This document shows positions 7,985-24,605 of a stretch of DNA of 31,156 bases, one piece after another. Within the stretch, counting starts at the first letter, position 1; every line of letters starts with the position of its first letter. A program made the translations under genes and the position numbers. Origin of the DNA: a virus (Duplodnaviria > Heunggongvirae > Uroviricota > Caudoviricetes); IMG/VR virus record IMGVR_UViG_2778261417_000015, positions 1 to 31,156 of that record. One strand, 5' to 3'. The notes under the pieces were generated by a model. The model ran no database searches. It had not been told where the DNA came from and saw only the letters and a list, made by a program, of their open reading frames with translations.

Positions 7985-8740
7985 TCAGCTATGAAATCTA
8001 TATGCCCTAGACTGGCTTACCAGAACTTTCGCGCAGATACGGAGAGATGAAAAATCACCGTCCTCGATATACCAGGTCTCATATTTTTTATTGTCAGAAA
8101 TCACTGCTAATTTTTTGTGCTGTTTTTGTAGCCGTTTGATATAGAGATCATTGTCCAGAACGAAAATATAAATGCCGTCACCGTCAAAACAGTCGATGCT
8201 GATGTCGACGAATATCTGGTCGCGGGGCTCGAACGTGCCTGACATCGAATCGCCATTAACAGCAATCATTTTTATATGGTCTGCAGGGCGCCCACCAAAG
8301 ACAGCATGAGCCTCTTCGGTCGAATACTCTATGGATCTAATAGTCTCAATAAATTCATCTCGCACAAGAATTCCTTGCCCAGCACTAGCCTGAATATCAA
8401 AAACGTCTACTCGAAAAGAATCATCCCTCACTGCCATATGCCCTTCGGATATGCCATCTGCTCCACTATCGCCTAAAAGGTAAGACGAAGATGTGCCAAT
8501 TATAGCCGCCAATTCCTGCAGCTTCCCACGTCTCGGAATGGATTCCCCATTGAACCACTTGCTTACCGCTTTCGGCGTTAGCTTCATTCGTTTGGCTATT
8601 TCAGCCTGACGACCATGAGCAGGTAAACCAGCTTTATCACAGGCCAGCGCTAGCCGTTGGGAGAATTCAGTACGCGCTTTTTCTTCTTGAACCATAGGTT
8701 CAATCATAATATCACTTGCGTGAACTATCAGTTCCGACAT
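7985..8740 (-). CDS. cI: CI-type prophage repressor (HTH_XRE plus S24 LexA-like peptidase domain), 251 aa
   Basis: N-terminal HTH (QAEIAKRMKLTPKAVSKWFNGESIP) and C-terminal S24 autopeptidase motifs (AVNGDSMSGTF ... LYIKRL). Divergent from the cro-like gene. Start may be internal or leaderless. Confidence 0.85.
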   Translation of the reverse strand: MSELIVHASDIMIEPMVQEEKARTEFSQRLALACDKAGLPAHGRQAEIAKRMKLTPKAVSKWFNGESIPRRGKLQELAAIIGTSSSYLLGDSGADGISEGHMAVRDDSFRVDVFDIQASAGQGILVRDEFIETIRSIEYSTEEAHAVFGGRPADHIKMIAVNGDSMSGTFEPRDQIFVDISIDCFDGDGIYIFVLDNDLYIKRLQKQHKKLAVISDNKKYETWYIEDGDFSSLRICAKVLVSQSRAYRFHS

Positions 8741-9112: not shown

Positions 9113-9655
9113 ATGCAATCACTTACGTATCAACAGAGTACCGGAATACACAGCAGCGTGATGATAAATCGCGCTCAACCGGAACCGGACAATAACCATG
9201 AGTTGATCCGCGCGGCGGTTCGCGCCTGGTCAGCTGCTATCGACAATCAGGACGTGGTATGCGCGCTGATTATCAACGAGTACCGGGAGCAGGGCGGCAC
9301 AGCGATCAACTTTCCGGAAGATGTGAGCCGGGCCAGGCAGAAGTTATTTCGTTTTCTCGATAACCGGTTCGACTCCGATCAGTACCGCGAGAACGTTCGC
9401 GAGCTGACGCCAGCGATTATGGCTGTCCTGCCGCTTGAATACCGTACGCGGCTGCTTCCACAGAACGACACGATGTCTTTGATTGCTTCTGCAATGAAAG
9501 AGTGTGCTGAGGCTAAGCAGGCGGTACTCCTTGGCGCGCCAGAGCATCAGAAATTGAAGGAGGTAAGCGAAGGTATAGCGTCGCTGTTCCGACTCATGCC
9601 TGAACAGGTAGGCCCGCTGATGACGATGGTCACTTCGATGCTGGGAGTTATGTGA
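9113..9655 (+). CDS. YdaT-like protein in the cII position (180 aa)
   Basis: Intact ORF directly after the nut-like site. The N-terminal segment resembles recalled YdaT-family proteins found after cro-like genes. Functional assignment is tentative. Confidence 0.45.
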   Translation: MQSLTYQQSTGIHSSVMINRAQPEPDNNHELIRAAVRAWSAAIDNQDVVCALIINEYREQGGTAINFPEDVSRARQKLFRFLDNRFDSDQYRENVRELTPAIMAVLPLEYRTRLLPQNDTMSLIASAMKECAEAKQAVLLGAPEHQKLKEVSEGIASLFRLMPEQVGPLMTMVTSMLGVM

Positions 9656-12868: not shown

Positions 12869-13621
12869 TTAGTCATGTTTAAATCCTGGATTCCCTATAG
12901 AATTTGCCTCGAAGGATTTTTGAATCTGATAGTGCTCAATTTCCTGTTTAATGTTAGTGATTTCATCTTTAAGTTTTTCATTATCTGCGTAGGCTTGCGC
13001 TAAATCCTTCTCTAGATCAAGAATTTTATTGTTTTGCTCTTTAACCATTTTATCCGAGTGAATCGCCTGTTCGCTAAAGCGTGTTGATGATTCCTTCAGG
13101 GCTGTTTGTGCTTTAAGTAGCTCTTCTAATTCCAGCTTGAGTTTATCCCGTTCTGCAGTAATCTCACCCATCCTCTCCTGAGATTTCACAATACTTTCAC
13201 GCATTTCTTGTATTTCTTTCTCTGCCCCAGCCTTGAATCGATTATATGTAACGTCCCGTTTTGCCCTATATCTCTCCACACTGATATCAGCAACTAACGC
13301 CTTCTTGCGTCGAATCGCCATCAATACTGAGGTTCGTGAAATAGGCTTAGACTGCAAAGCAGTAAATTTCTCGTTGATGATTGGCAAAGCAATTGCCAAA
13401 AGTATAGCAATTAGAAGAGGAAGCAGAAAAATAATTGGATATGTATTGCTTATAAAGGTCAGCCTTGATTCGATTTTCATTTCACTGAAAAGCAAAACAG
13501 CCACAGCCTTCCAATTGCATGCAAACCAAGACAAGATAAAGACACCATAGAAAGGGCTTTTGAATCGCTCTGTAGATGTTTTTTGAACTGAAAAGTAAAT
13601 TTCTTTTATTGATTCCCACAT
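12869..13621 (-). CDS. Membrane protein: two predicted transmembrane helices plus long coiled coil (250 aa), opposite strand
   Basis: Hydrophobic segments (FYGVFILSWFACNWKAVAVLLF; YPIIFLLPLLIAILLAIALPII) followed by heptad-rich charged sequence. Strongly AT-rich. Orientation opposes flanking phage genes. Confidence 0.6.
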   Translation of the reverse strand: MWESIKEIYFSVQKTSTERFKSPFYGVFILSWFACNWKAVAVLLFSEMKIESRLTFISNTYPIIFLLPLLIAILLAIALPIINEKFTALQSKPISRTSVLMAIRRKKALVADISVERYRAKRDVTYNRFKAGAEKEIQEMRESIVKSQERMGEITAERDKLKLELEELLKAQTALKESSTRFSEQAIHSDKMVKEQNNKILDLEKDLAQAYADNEKLKDEITNIKQEIEHYQIQKSFEANSIGNPGFKHD

Positions 13622-15964: not shown

Positions 15965-16101
15965 AAAAGGAAGCCATTGCAGCACTCAAAACTCGCTGGC
16001 AGCGCCAACGCCTGTACCGCTTCCCCGGCTCAGTCCTGACCTATTACCGAATCATCCATAACGCAGCCCGTCTAATTCAGAAAGCAGGAGCCACGCAATG
16101 A
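15961..16101 (+). CDS. Small hypothetical protein (46 aa), translationally coupled
   Basis: Hand-translated ORF (MKKEAIAALKTRWQRQRLYRFPGSVLTYYRIIHNAARLIQKAGATQ) with ATGA overlaps at both ends, to the ninG stop and the Q-like start. Confidence 0.4.
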   Translation: MKKEAIAALKTRWQRQRLYRFPGSVLTYYRIIHNAARLIQKAGATQ

Positions 16102-16787
16102 ATACGCAATATCTTGAGTTTGTTCGACAACAGCTCATCGTGGCAACCGCTGACCTGAGCGGAGCGACGAAAGGGCAACTCATAGCTTTCGCTGAGAACG
16201 CGCAATTCACCGCGACGGCGCGCTGCCGGGGCCGGAAAAAAGTATTCGACAAGGATAAGCAGCGCATGGTGAACCCGGACGGCCCGCCGATGAGCGGCAG
16301 CCAGTCGCGCGCCAAAGGCTCATCAATCGCTCTGGTAAGCCCGGTAGAGTTCAGCACCGCATCCTGGCGACGCGCTGTTTTGTCACTGGAAGAACATCAG
16401 AAGGCCTGGCTTCTGTGGAACTACAGCGAGAACATCCGCTTTGAGTATCAGGTGGCGATCACTCAGTGGGCGTGGGCAGAGTTTCGTGAACAGCTCGGCG
16501 TGAAGAGGGTGGCGGGCAAGACGATGGAGCGCCTGAAGAAACTGATATGGCTGGCGGCGCAGGACACAAAAGAAGAGCTGGCAGGGCGTGAGACGTACGA
16601 ATACCAGGTGCTGGCGTCGCTGGTTGGCGTAACACCAAAGAACTGGTCAGAGACCTTTACGGACCACTGGATGGCGATGAGACGCATCTTCCTGAGCCTA
16701 GATAGTGGCGCTTTATTGCAGGTAACACGATCACGTTCACAACAAAAGGCGACAAACTCTCATGAAAGTCTTGCAAAACTGGATTGA
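16098..16787 (+). CDS. Late-gene antiterminator Q-like protein (229 aa)
   Basis: Assigned by position: last gene of the nin region, followed by a candidate promoter, strong terminators and the lysis cassette. Sequence resembles the recalled phage antitermination Q family, unverified. Confidence 0.55.
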   Translation: MNTQYLEFVRQQLIVATADLSGATKGQLIAFAENAQFTATARCRGRKKVFDKDKQRMVNPDGPPMSGSQSRAKGSSIALVSPVEFSTASWRRAVLSLEEHQKAWLLWNYSENIRFEYQVAITQWAWAEFREQLGVKRVAGKTMERLKKLIWLAAQDTKEELAGRETYEYQVLASLVGVTPKNWSETFTDHWMAMRRIFLSLDSGALLQVTRSRSQQKATNSHESLAKLD

Positions 16788-21604: not shown

Positions 21605-23056
21605 GTGAACGAAAGCGAAATGAACAAACAATTTGCCGCAAATGCCAGCCTCGATCGTGATCGTATGCGCTACGTTAACGCTCTGTTTAATGGCACCAGT
21701 AATACGAAACGCCAGCGACTTTACCAGGAGTTTGGCTATCCACTGAACCTGACGTTCGACGACTTTTTCCGGGCCTACAGCCGTAATGCAATTGCCAATG
21801 CTGCGGTTAACCGGATGGTTGATGGCTGCTGGGAGGACTTCCCGGATGTCTACGAAGGTGACCAGACGAAGGATGCCACCAAGCAAACGGAATGGGATAA
21901 GCGCGTAAACAAACTGCTCAAGCGTTGCTGGAAACAGATTAAAGGCGCTGACAAGCGAAACCTAGTGGGGCGCTACTCTGCGCTGCTGATCCAGGTAAAG
22001 GATAACCGGACCTGGGATAAGCCGGTCGATAAGATAGTTACTGCCAGGCAGAAGGAAAAGGCGCTGGTTAAGTTGATCCCGGTGTGGGAGGCACAGATTG
22101 AGCCTGTCACTTACAACGAAGATCAGAGCAGCGAGAACTATGGTGACATCACCATGTACTCGTTTACTGAAATTCCGGTACAACAGCAAGCTGGTGGGCA
22201 GCCCGGGCGCATCATCAACGTCCATCCTGACCGCGTAATTATCCTTGCTGAAGGTTCAGATGATGGCCGCCTCTACTCTGGAGAATCACTACTTGCTGCC
22301 GGTTTCCATAAAATTATGGACAGCGAGAAGGTCTCCGGCGGTGCCGCCGAGGGGTTCTTCAAAAACGCCAGCCGCCAGCTCAACTTCAACTTCAGCGCCA
22401 AAACAAACCTCTCAGCGCTGGCTAAGGCTCTTGGTGTTTCAGAATCTCAGCTATCCGAAGCCCTTGATGGGCAGGTGCGACGCCTTAACGACAGCTCTGA
22501 TAGCGCTGTGATGATGCAGGAGGGCGATGTCAGCGTGCTTTCGGTTGCAGCGGCAGATCCTGAACCCACGTGGCGAACCATTCTGAATGAGTTTTGCGCC
22601 ACCGTGCCGATCCCGGTCAAAGTCCTGGTAGGCATGCAGACGGGGGAGCGGGCCAGTACTGAGGATGCGAAGGACTGGGCCAAGACCCGAATGAGCCGGC
22701 GAACCGGCTTCCTGACAGACCTGATAACGGACATCGTTACCCGATTCTGGGAGTTTGGCTTTATTCCTCCAGCTGCAGGTGAGGAAATTACCGTCGGATG
22801 GTCTGATCTACTGGCACCGAGCCAGGCAGAGAAGATTGCCAACATGGACAAACTCGCGGATGTGGCCGTGAAGTCGACAAACGCGTTTGGCCGCTCAGCT
22901 ATCACCGAAAACGAGATACGCGCGGCGGGTGAACTGCAAGCCCTGCCAGAACTTGATGATGAGGTGCCGCCAGATGGCAACCAGCCAAAGCCTGACCCTC
23001 TGGCCGACCCAGAATCAGAAGCCGAAGAGTCCGGTGATACCACGGTCGAAAGTTGA
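21605..23056 (+). CDS. Portal protein (483 aa)
   Basis: Size and position immediately after the terminase large subunit, with an acidic C-terminal tail. GGAGGA RBS before the GTG. Confidence 0.7.
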   Translation: MNESEMNKQFAANASLDRDRMRYVNALFNGTSNTKRQRLYQEFGYPLNLTFDDFFRAYSRNAIANAAVNRMVDGCWEDFPDVYEGDQTKDATKQTEWDKRVNKLLKRCWKQIKGADKRNLVGRYSALLIQVKDNRTWDKPVDKIVTARQKEKALVKLIPVWEAQIEPVTYNEDQSSENYGDITMYSFTEIPVQQQAGGQPGRIINVHPDRVIILAEGSDDGRLYSGESLLAAGFHKIMDSEKVSGGAAEGFFKNASRQLNFNFSAKTNLSALAKALGVSESQLSEALDGQVRRLNDSSDSAVMMQEGDVSVLSVAAADPEPTWRTILNEFCATVPIPVKVLVGMQTGERASTEDAKDWAKTRMSRRTGFLTDLITDIVTRFWEFGFIPPAAGEEITVGWSDLLAPSQAEKIANMDKLADVAVKSTNAFGRSAITENEIRAAGELQALPELDDEVPPDGNQPKPDPLADPESEAEESGDTTVES

Positions 23057-23063
23057 CCCCACA

Positions 23064-23984
23064 ATGTCGCGCAAGTCCGTCAGCAAGATGGAGCGCGACA
23101 TTGAGGGCCGGTATTACGCGATAAAGGTGGCGTTGAAAGCGCTGTTCGATCAGCGCATGACCGGACGAGAGCGCGAGGTAAACAGCCATAACTGGCATTT
23201 CCTTTGCCACGACCACGGCGAGGATATGCGGCTGTACCAGGTCAACGCCGGCAAGTTCATCTATGACATGTCGGCACAGGAACTGGCTGACCTGCTAGAG
23301 GCGGTGCAGGGCATTCTCGATGATTACCTGCTGGAAGGTGGCGAGCAAAACCTGTGGGCGATGGATTACGTCGTCGCTGAAGCGCAGCGCGGCACGCTGG
23401 AGGCATTCAATAACCTCGCGCAGCAGTCGCAGGTATACGCAAGCCAGACGACGCTGCAGCAGATTTTAAGCAGCACCGGTCACCTTAATCAGGTGGCGGC
23501 GGCCAGGCTGACAACGTTCAGCGACTGGAAGGTCATCAGCGACACTGCCCGCGGCGACCTGACCAACATCATCACCGATGCCGTAGCTCGCGGGGTGAAT
23601 CCTCGCGAGACTGCAAGCGTAATCAGTAAGCGCCTCGATGTGAGCATGTCGAAGGCGAAAAACATCGCTCAGACTGAGCAGGTAGGAGCGCTGCGGCAGG
23701 CGCAGTGGAACGAAACGGACTGGGCTGCTGACCGGCTGGGGCTGAATACCGGCCTGATGTGGTTATCAGCGCTAAAGCCGACGACACGCACCTGGCACGC
23801 CAGCCGTCACGGACTCGTTTACACCACCGAAGAGGTACGGGACTTCTACGCCGAGAACGGCAACCGGTACAACTGCTATTGCAGCCAGATTCCGGTGCTA
23901 CTCAACGATGACGGCAGCATTTTCAATGAAGGCCTGGAAGACAAGTTGGTGAAAGAGCGCAAAGGTTGGAAAGGTTCTAAGTAG
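23064..23984 (+). CDS. Head morphogenesis protein, Mu gpF / SPP1 gp7-like (about 306 aa)
   Basis: Follows the portal gene; sequence resembles the recalled minor-head MuF-like family. The track ORF begins inside the portal gene, so the first ATG after the portal stop was used. Confidence 0.6.
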   Translation: MSRKSVSKMERDIEGRYYAIKVALKALFDQRMTGREREVNSHNWHFLCHDHGEDMRLYQVNAGKFIYDMSAQELADLLEAVQGILDDYLLEGGEQNLWAMDYVVAEAQRGTLEAFNNLAQQSQVYASQTTLQQILSSTGHLNQVAAARLTTFSDWKVISDTARGDLTNIITDAVARGVNPRETASVISKRLDVSMSKAKNIAQTEQVGALRQAQWNETDWAADRLGLNTGLMWLSALKPTTRTWHASRHGLVYTTEEVRDFYAENGNRYNCYCSQIPVLLNDDGSIFNEGLEDKLVKERKGWKGSK

Positions 23985-24026
23985 TGATATCATCATACTC
24001 ACGAGAGAATGACATGCAGGTGAGTA

Positions 24027-24542
24027 ATGAGCAGTGTAACTGCGGCAGAAGTAGGTTCTTTTTTGCTATCTCTGGTTGTGCCTGTTATCACAGGTGTTGT
24101 TGCGGCAGGATTCACAGCATATTTTGCCCTAACAAGATTCTACAGAGAGAAATGGTGGGAGAAAAAACATGCCGCTTATAACCAGTTGATAGAAAAACTT
24201 TTTGAACTTAAAGACCTATACATCATTGCATCAGATATTACGGAGATGGAATTCGAAGCTCATAGAGGCGAACGAGACCCTCCAAAAGCTAAGGTTGATT
24301 GGCATAAGCTGAATGAAGTGAGATCTCAGGTTCACAGACTTTATGTCCTATCACCTATCTCCTTCAGTGGTAATGTCAGAGAGTTATTGGACAATCTTCT
24401 TACTCAAGATACTGAAAAAAATATCAGCATCTATGAAGAGGGATATCTTGAATTTATTGCTTATCACGAAATGTCAGGCGTAATACAGTCATCCATTGAT
24501 GCAATAGTCGCAGATGCAAAGGAAGAGCTTAAGTTCAAATAA
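24027..24542 (+). CDS. Membrane-anchored unknown protein (171 aa): moron inside the head module
   Basis: AT-rich ORF with AGGTGAG RBS, N-terminal transmembrane helix (FLLSLVVPVITGVVAAGFTAYFAL), and its own terminator downstream. Confidence 0.55.
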   Translation: MSSVTAAEVGSFLLSLVVPVITGVVAAGFTAYFALTRFYREKWWEKKHAAYNQLIEKLFELKDLYIIASDITEMEFEAHRGERDPPKAKVDWHKLNEVRSQVHRLYVLSPISFSGNVRELLDNLLTQDTEKNISIYEEGYLEFIAYHEMSGVIQSSIDAIVADAKEELKFK

Positions 24543-24552
24543 AATTACATGA

Positions 24553-24577
24553 GGTCGCCAAGGCGGCCTTTTTTATT
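24553..24577 (+). terminator. Rho-independent terminator after the head-module moron
   Basis: GGTCGC-CAAG-GCGGCC followed by TTTTTTATT. Confidence 0.6.
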
Positions 24578-24605
24578 GCCTGAAATCCACCAATGAGGAC
24601 GCAAC

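Follow-up and report, generated by a model that had tools for sequence, protein, structure and literature searches.

An AT-rich gene for a predicted membrane protein in a cargo slot of a lambdoid phage head operon

The viral record IMGVR_UViG_2778261417_000015 (Duplodnaviria; Heunggongvirae; Uroviricota; Caudoviricetes), analysed here over all of its 31,156 nucleotides (nt) and referred to as the window, contains between two head genes an open reading frame (ORF) of 171 amino acids (aa) that is very probably a moron, i.e., an accessory gene gained by a lambdoid temperate phage through horizontal transfer. Its position, between a MuF-like and a DUF2213 gene, is a hypervariable cargo hotspot, and the ORF is one of the tenants. 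A preliminary description, made from the sequence, had proposed a moron with an exclusion or lysogenic-conversion function; such a function is suggested by architecture and context, and an anti-phage role of some kind is, on balance, the better assumption. The elements of the slot are as follows.

23067-23984, plus strand: 3' part of the MuF-like head morphogenesis gene, the left slot border (PF04233, E 9e-11; phrog_758, E 3.5e-136)
23966-23993, plus strand: sigma-70 extended -10 promoter-like site (-35 TTGGAA, 23966-23971; TG, 23985-23986; -10 TATCAT, 23988-23993)
24018-24024, plus strand: Shine-Dalgarno-like AGGTGAG at a short spacing from the ATG, as read from the sequence
24027-24542, plus strand: the ORF, 171 aa, ATG start and TAA stop, predicted membrane anchor and four-helix bundle, match to phrog_17948
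24060-24131, plus strand: predicted transmembrane helix, residues 12-35 (hydropathy)
24135-24167, plus strand: juxtamembrane signature RFYREKWWEKK, residues 37-47, invariant in 36 close homologues
24551-24577, plus strand: intrinsic terminator (8-bp stem, 24551-24558/24563-24570; CAAG loop; T-run to 24577)
24578-24605, plus strand: conserved DUF2213 leader with ribosome-binding site (gcctgaaatccaccaatgaggacgcaac), near-identical behind unrelated cargos
24606-25967, plus strand: DUF2213 head gene, protease- or scaffold-like, the right slot border (PF09979, E 1.3e-5; phrog_760, E 1.1e-177)

The cargo slot and its signals

By the definition of Hendrix and Juhala, a moron is extra DNA of deviant base composition lying between genes that are adjacent in relatives, with its own promoter and terminator and with expression from the repressed prophage (PMC3594210). 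The composition of the ORF is clearly foreign: GC content drops from ~0.58 to 0.38-0.42 over 24000-24600, the ORF itself having a GC content of 0.393 against 0.55-0.58 in the surrounding genes, and a third-position GC content of 0.337 against 0.742 in the MuF-like and 0.711 in the DUF2213 gene. The AT-rich ORF, its ribosome-binding site and its placement between a MuF-like and a scaffold-like head gene were correctly recognized in the preliminary description.

Slot content was surveyed in two sets, namely 23 genomes that each represent a species and have a close DUF2213 gene, and 78 scorable viral contigs encoding a MuF protein at least 90% identical to that of the window. The preliminary description had proposed a check of whether otherwise syntenic head modules lack the ORF, and most of them do: the ORF family is absent from 73 of the 78 contigs (94%), being present in the other 5, and from all 23 genomes, the same two genes being separated by only 27-38 nt where the slot is empty. 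Four of the contig slots are empty, two are short (143 and 177 nt) and contain no ORF of at least 40 aa, and the remainder carry other cargo, while 5 of the 23 genomes have an empty junction (27-38 nt) and 2 a hairpin alone. The cultured relatives KO-TP1, ST101-KPC2phi6.1 and Kp4856-1 have different small genes at the slot and lack the ORF; in related Escherichia coli prophages the slot is empty or is filled by a Rap1a/Tai immunity gene or by further hypothetical genes.

Both surveys pooled yielded 99 cargo ORFs, which fall into 34 clusters. The inserts are all AT-rich, with a GC content of 0.37-0.48 in most slots versus 0.55-0.60 in the flanks. The commonest alternative cargo, encoded on the opposite strand, is a Rap1a-type immunity lipoprotein (PF18602), which shows that the slot hosts cargo of benefit to the host. 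Another cargo is an HNH endonuclease (HNH_3, 226-230 aa), and further families include proteins of 209-225 aa with 'YLYHWV' and of 90-109 aa with 'MAKPDEPYRK'. When ten representatives were scanned against Pfam and PADLOC, the Rap1a and HNH proteins were matched and the other eight were not.

In some slots bearing the ORF, a second small cargo lies between the ORF terminator and the DUF2213 gene (L004, L005 and L047, 797 nt; L062, L066, L077, L079, L087 and L117); in Cronobacter prophages it is a 52-aa Cys-rich ORF. As two cargos may share one slot, the slot is able to stack cassettes.

The slot is also a place of recombination. DUF2213 genes are of two types, ~50% identical to each other, which pair freely with near-identical MuF genes (L002, L009-L013, L126 and following loci), so that the slot marks a mosaic recombination boundary within the head module. 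The identity of the ORF to that of the window is likewise uncoupled from the identity of its flanks (MuF 92%, ORF 57% and DUF2213 94% in locus L086; 82%, 99% and 58%, respectively, in locus L046), which indicates that alleles are reshuffled by recombination at the slot.

The interval 23985-24026, singled out in the preliminary description for a promoter search, opens with an extended -10 element (TG-a-TATCAT, 23985-23993) belonging to the sole sigma-70 promoter-like site in 22500-26500. This element starts one base past the MuF stop codon, the spacer between TTGGAA and TATCAT is 16 nt, and the predicted transcript start lies at ~24000. Among 53 distinct sequences upstream of diverged ORF alleles, 30 contain the motif TGnTATnA[AT], versus 1.2 +/- 1.1 in shuffles, a count that is supportive but gives no probability, the upstream sequences being related to one another and not independent samples. 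The motif is mostly placed 42 nt upstream of the ATG and is found in several different sequence classes; at the Shine-Dalgarno-like site, caGGTGAgnaATG recurs in many ORF alleles. The -35 hexamer TTGGAA lies within the conserved C-terminal W-K codons of the MuF gene, and the MuF backbone may lend half a promoter to any cargo that brings a -10 element. The upstream arrangement of other cargos (L003, L024, L027) is TGGAAA-N15-TGATACAA.

Downstream of the ORF, a terminator had been described as strong and private. The hairpin and T-run are indeed present at 24551-24577, the hairpin beginning 8 nt past the stop codon, with a folding energy of -13.2 kcal/mol (z = -2.35 versus shuffles), but they are not private to the ORF, being common to many slot cargos. 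A pattern scan found 3 terminator-like sites in the region versus 4.9 expected in shuffles, so a single match is not significant; the terminator is judged real because it is conserved across related loci with 39 different stem sequences. With hairpins detected in each sequence separately and G-U pairs allowed, a hairpin and T-run within 75 nt of the DUF2213 start were found in 70 of 80 loci bearing the ORF, in 54 of 88 loci with other cargo and in both hairpin-only slots, compared with none of 9 truly empty junctions. As the stem varies (e.g., ggtcgc/gcggcc, acccgc/gcgggt, cccagc/gctggg, ccacctct/agaggtgg) while its pairing is kept, this speaks for a real terminator of the right-hand junction of the slot, common to plus-strand cargos. 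It is followed by an almost invariant 35-nt leader beginning attgcctgaaatccaccaatgaggac, which persists alone with the terminator in near-empty slots; truly empty junctions lack both. In the lysogen, the terminator probably keeps transcription of the cargo from entering the head genes, and the terminator-leader junction together with the MuF 3' end could offer homology for cargo exchange. As regards signals of its own, therefore, the ORF has a conserved extended -10 motif and a terminator that is present but shared with other cargos.

The protein and its family

The N-terminal transmembrane helix of the preliminary description corresponds to the single hydrophobic segment of the protein (residues ~9-35; maximum KD19 2.25) and to the start of the first helix in an AlphaFold2 model built with 36 homologues (predicted local distance difference test, pLDDT, 82.5; predicted template modelling score, pTM, 0.71). 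The model consists of helices 6-79 (starting as the membrane span), 92-107, 115-137 and 142-168, and the protein is accordingly predicted to be a membrane anchor that continues into a four-helix bundle. The net charge is -1 in the N-tail and +3 in the 15 residues after the span, from which the positive-inside rule predicts an N-out/C-in topology with a cytoplasmic bundle; the predicted location is the inner membrane.

Residues G23, A26, A27, T30, L35, Y39, E41-K47 (EKWWEKK), Y51, P110, I157, A164, E167 and L168 are invariant in the close family. In distant homologues the juxtamembrane signature is kept as RFYxE[KR]WWE[KR]K, W44 being invariant and F38, E41 and L168 nearly so. The membrane helix has a stripe of small residues (G23, A26, A27, T30, A31, A34), which fall on one helix face with the spacing i, i+3/4, i+7/8, i+11, a pattern that seems typical of tight helix-helix packing. 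Together with the likewise invariant, interfacial RFYxEKWWEKK, this invariant face suggests that the helices pack together or against a partner in the membrane. Judging from the order of the helices, the conserved juxtamembrane part of helix 1, the turn at 104-112 and the C-terminal end would form the base of the bundle, next to the membrane, and its distal tip would be made up of the variable stretches 61-100 and 122-150. Pairwise ratios of nonsynonymous to synonymous substitution rates (dN/dS) are 0.15 overall, which indicates purifying selection on a functional gene, and fall to 0.06 in residues 36-60, where the juxtamembrane signature, under the strongest constraint of the whole protein, is located.

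A word-indexed search yielded 52 homologues with 40-98% identity; those that are named come without exception from Enterobacterales, and the best (98%) is from Cronobacter sakazakii. All seven homologues looked up in genomes of Cronobacter, Klebsiella, Raoultella, E. coli and Citrobacter occupy the same slot, and in IMG/VR 61 of the 80 best loci do so too; among 5426 complete E. coli genomes the ORF occurs in one, again in this slot. An exhaustive profile search extended the family to 1075 representative clusters (50% identity; E <= 1e-3), and nearly all of the 150 listed clusters are stand-alone proteins of 150-200 aa. A second family member was searched for in the window and not found.

Outside the slot, distant relatives (25-39% identity) take other classical accessory positions in temperate phages. 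Those of Serratia phage OS31, Enterobacter phage CobraSix and loci L115 and L122 adjoin xis/int, those of L111 and L125 come right after the cI-N region, and that of L100 is directly 3' of the Rz spanin gene, before an HNH/terminase block. In Gibbsiella quercinecans (L006) a 71%-identical copy, whose protein was found on 21 contigs, is intact where MuF is gone and DUF2213 is cut to its first 43 codons. It adjoins the PADLOC candidate system PDC-M09A/B (E 4e-27 and 6e-20) and an Old-family nuclease (E 5e-57), and this locus (L006, 4255-7486 and 1705-3585) is a small defence island partly built on a prophage remnant. A 190-aa gene without assignment lies between PDC-M09A and PDC-M09B.

Four distant chromosomal members were examined, of which one comes after a BREX system and before integrases (L208), one is amid HEPN_RiboL-PSP, HATPase_c_3 and integrase genes (L209), one amid transposases and one amid metabolic genes (L206). 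Three of five chromosomal contexts outside the slot are beside defence genes (Old and PDC-M09; BREX; HEPN), a sample too small for statistics. A head-assembly component was rejected on the distribution data, the gene being absent from most head modules and also found outside them. The proposal of a moron is supported by absence from syntenic modules, foreign composition, the promoter motif and independence from the head genes.

Searches for characterised relatives of the window protein against Pfam, NCBIfam and PADLOC gave no match (0 families at E <= 1 in PADLOC-DB 2.0), and the matching phrog_17948 (E 3.7e-25) has no function assigned in PHROGs. With 71 distant relatives as queries, nothing rose above noise in the same three libraries, the PADLOC matches being scattered and weak (E >= 3.7e-4). 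Matches to PIN_12 and C2c1 (E 0.05-0.08) and to Csx28 and tm_HEPN (E ~0.003, in 3 of the 71) were judged to be chance or composition effects, and a profile search of the PDB gave matches to the heptad repeats of HIV gp41 over ~30 residues alone, a helical coincidence. Homology to known exclusion proteins was rejected as well, since hhalign gave the family profile a probability below 1% against each of SieB, RexB, gp15, SieA and Sie2009. Literature searches on the slot, DUF2213 and membrane morons returned no description of the ORF family or the hotspot, and both appear undescribed in the libraries and literature searched.

The window represents a temperate phage, or a prophage, of lambdoid type. 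The gene order is cI-like repressor, Q, lysozyme, Rz spanin, small and large terminase, portal, MuF-like protein, the ORF, DUF2213, decoration protein and capsid, the last being a DUF6260 major capsid protein. The MuF-like gene probably starts later than the listed ORF start at 22887. Its two regulatory genes are placed as follows.

7985-8740, minus strand: cI-like S24 repressor
16098-16787, plus strand: Q antiterminator (PF06323, E 2.4e-87)

Several other ORFs of the window are of note. The immunity and early-right region has an ORF with a YdaT_toxin domain (9113-9655; PF06254, E 8e-28). A 92-aa ORF right after the major capsid gene (27513-27791) encodes a perfect (AEQ)5 repeat, derived from a GCAGAACAG-type tandem repeat. 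Immediately downstream of the cI-like repressor gene, in the position of rexAB in lambda, an AT-rich island (GC ~0.41) holds a 195-aa ORF (7386-7973, minus strand) without Pfam or PADLOC matches, possibly a second accessory gene expressed by the prophage. A 250-aa ORF (12869-13621, minus strand), antisense to the surrounding replication/nin genes, lies in the window's most AT-rich island (GC 0.385-0.41); it has a weak coiled-coil match alone in Pfam and none in PADLOC, and may be a third moron.

Candidate functions

The explanation that we favour begins in the lysogen, where the ORF would be transcribed from its own promoter and transcription would end at the slot terminator, leaving the downstream head genes silent. 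The Q antiterminator of lambdoid phages is expected to let late transcription read through terminators. By analogy, Q of the window (16098-16787) may let it pass the slot terminator, so that after induction the Q-modified RNA polymerase would express the head operon normally. The protein would reside in the inner membrane with its short N-terminus outside and its 135-residue four-helix bundle in the cytoplasm, where the bundle could sense a product of an infecting phage; the membrane helices would then assemble and permeabilise or depolarise the membrane, aborting the infection and defending the lysogen.

That the gene acts against phages at all is somewhat favoured by its moron layout, by its resemblance to HK97 gp15 and P22 SieA, and by relatives that hold accessory positions and have defence genes as neighbours. 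The abortive sensor-pore mechanism is more tentative; we prefer it because most of the protein is predicted to face the cytoplasm, because the membrane and interface parts are invariant while the distal bundle is variable, and because the family is broad and also chromosomal.

Several points weigh against this explanation. No homology to a characterised defence family was found in PADLOC, Pfam, NCBIfam or the PDB, and fold searches among solved and predicted viral structures gave generic four-helix bundles alone. Oligomerisation and pore formation are suggested by a sequence motif, and the promoter is a consensus match whose recurrence was counted among related sequences. The supposed sensor tip shows no positive selection (crude regional dN/dS of 0.23-0.24). 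The association with defence genes comes from a handful of loci, and one distant member (L206, Chromobacterium) lies among ordinary metabolic genes. Finally, strong late transcription would be expected in the lytic cycle of the phage itself, where the protein may have a role.

The main rival is superinfection exclusion by a block of DNA entry at the inner membrane without cell killing, as by HK97 gp15, P22 SieA and T4 Imm; we consider it unlikely. The protein would then act by binding the ejection or tape-measure proteins of the incoming phage or a host inner-membrane channel. HK97 gp15 is itself a small inner-membrane protein from a moron in a late structural operon, SieA, located in the inner membrane and 162-164 aa long, blocks injection, the conserved helix face in the membrane offers a possible binding site for a host membrane protein, and strong late expression would do such a protein no harm. 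Against this, the prediction places most of the protein in the cytoplasm, off the periplasmic path of the incoming tail, and its sequence is unrelated to those of gp15, SieA and Sie2009 (hhalign below 1%). A family of 1075 clusters that also occurs outside prophages, in defence islands of chromosomes, is easier to reconcile with a generic defence module than with a phage-specific entry blocker.

Less likely still is a lysogenic conversion unrelated to phages, in which the protein would protect against toxins that target the membrane, e.g., pore-forming bacteriocins or type VI effectors, or confer tolerance of envelope stress. The commonest alternative cargo of the slot is after all a Rap1a-type immunity lipoprotein, active against type VI amidase effectors, and a protein that is predicted to be membrane-anchored and is retained in a decayed prophage would suit such a role. 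However, Pfam and related library scans gave no similarity to known immunity families, and the nearest non-phage neighbours are anti-phage genes, with no toxin genes among them. Immunity proteins to pore-formers are, moreover, usually polytopic.

We regard as improbable a dispensable and hence variable helper of the lytic cycle, produced late with the head genes and affecting lysis timing or membrane state or tethering assembly to the membrane. The ORF shares the strand of the late operon in which it is embedded and would be expressed by read-through from the late promoter, and the relative in L100 directly follows the Rz spanin gene. Yet 94% of the closest head modules lack the gene and have in its place nothing or unrelated genes, of which some lie on the opposite strand; the Gibbsiella copy is intact where the head genes were lost; other relatives lie in the early-left operon at xis/int and after cI-N; and the ORF has a promoter motif of its own. 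A counter-defence gene disabling a host immune system is very improbable: variable phage hotspots do carry anti-defence besides defence genes, according to one preprint (10.1101/2024.10.15.618418), but expression from a late operon would come too late against host defences, and membrane anchoring, chromosomal defence-island copies and survival in a dead prophage fit defence better.

Membrane-protein morons are a known means by which prophages protect or modify their hosts, and in this respect the layout described here is ordinary. What is new is a very large family without annotation in Pfam, NCBIfam, PADLOC or the function categories of PHROGs, whose occurrence in prophage accessory slots and beside BREX, Old, HEPN and candidate defence genes makes it a cheap, well-defined candidate for a new single-gene defence. 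One may speculate, with considerable reserve, that its more than 1000 clusters (50% identity), the ORF being the first to be noticed, are single-gene membrane defence proteins with one membrane helix, the RFYxE[KR]WWE[KR]K motif and a four-helix sensor in the cytoplasm, i.e., stand-alone Csx28-like sensor-pores without CRISPR, traded through a cassette slot of the head operon, the terminator-leader junction serving as both insulator and recombination handle. This common junction suggests how cargo swaps inside an essential operon can leave the operon undisturbed.

Comparison with known systems

The layout resembles that of HK97 gene 15, the first described moron, which is likewise an AT-rich insert in a lambdoid late structural operon; gene 15 has its own expression signals and a terminator 12 nt ahead of the next late gene. 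Its product, a YebO-like superinfection-exclusion protein, is a small inner-membrane protein made in the lysogen and resembles the ORF product as predicted. The two are unrelated in sequence (hhalign probability 0.2%), and gp15 has 62 aa and is encoded in the tail operon, whereas the ORF, located in the head operon, encodes 171 aa with a four-helix bundle predicted to be in the cytoplasm. P22 SieA is also a prophage-expressed inner-membrane protein, similar in size at 162-164 aa and encoded beside structural genes, but it has three predicted membrane helices and the motif FxRYPxEAxxFNK and is unrelated to the ORF product (hhalign 0.5%).

The lactococcal Sie2009 of Tuc2009 (173 aa) has a single N-terminal anchor and an accessory position next to the integrase, as in distant relatives of the ORF. 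Its lysine-rich N-tail implies the opposite topology, with the bulk outside, it contains a non-helical Ser/Thr-rich linker, and the hhalign probability of a relation is 0.6%. Lambda RexB and lambda/P22 SieB are prophage-expressed membrane proteins that abort superinfection, and SieB sits just beyond N, where relatives of the ORF sit in L111 and L125. Both are unrelated to the ORF product (hhalign 0.2% each; no match to the Pfam SieB family): RexB is polytopic and needs RexA, and SieB belongs to a different family.

The closest mechanistic analogue is Csx28 of type VI-B CRISPR systems, in which one N-terminal membrane helix is joined to a cytoplasmic all-helical domain and which depolarises the membrane by way of an oligomeric pore. 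Csx28 requires Cas13b and contains a divergent HEPN domain, whereas the ORF stands alone and has no conserved R-x4-6-H motif. The PADLOC Csx28 model matches 2 of the 71 distant family members at E ~0.003 and does not match the window protein.

As a site, the slot resembles the defence hotspots of P2 and P4 prophages, where, according to one account (PMC9122126), a fixed position between conserved phage genes likewise receives many alternative cargos. Those hotspots belong to another phage type and position, while the MuF/DUF2213 slot lies inside a head operon and its cargos have a conserved terminator-leader junction. With at least 30 cargo families, almost all of unassigned function, this slot could be mined as the P2 and P4 hotspots were.

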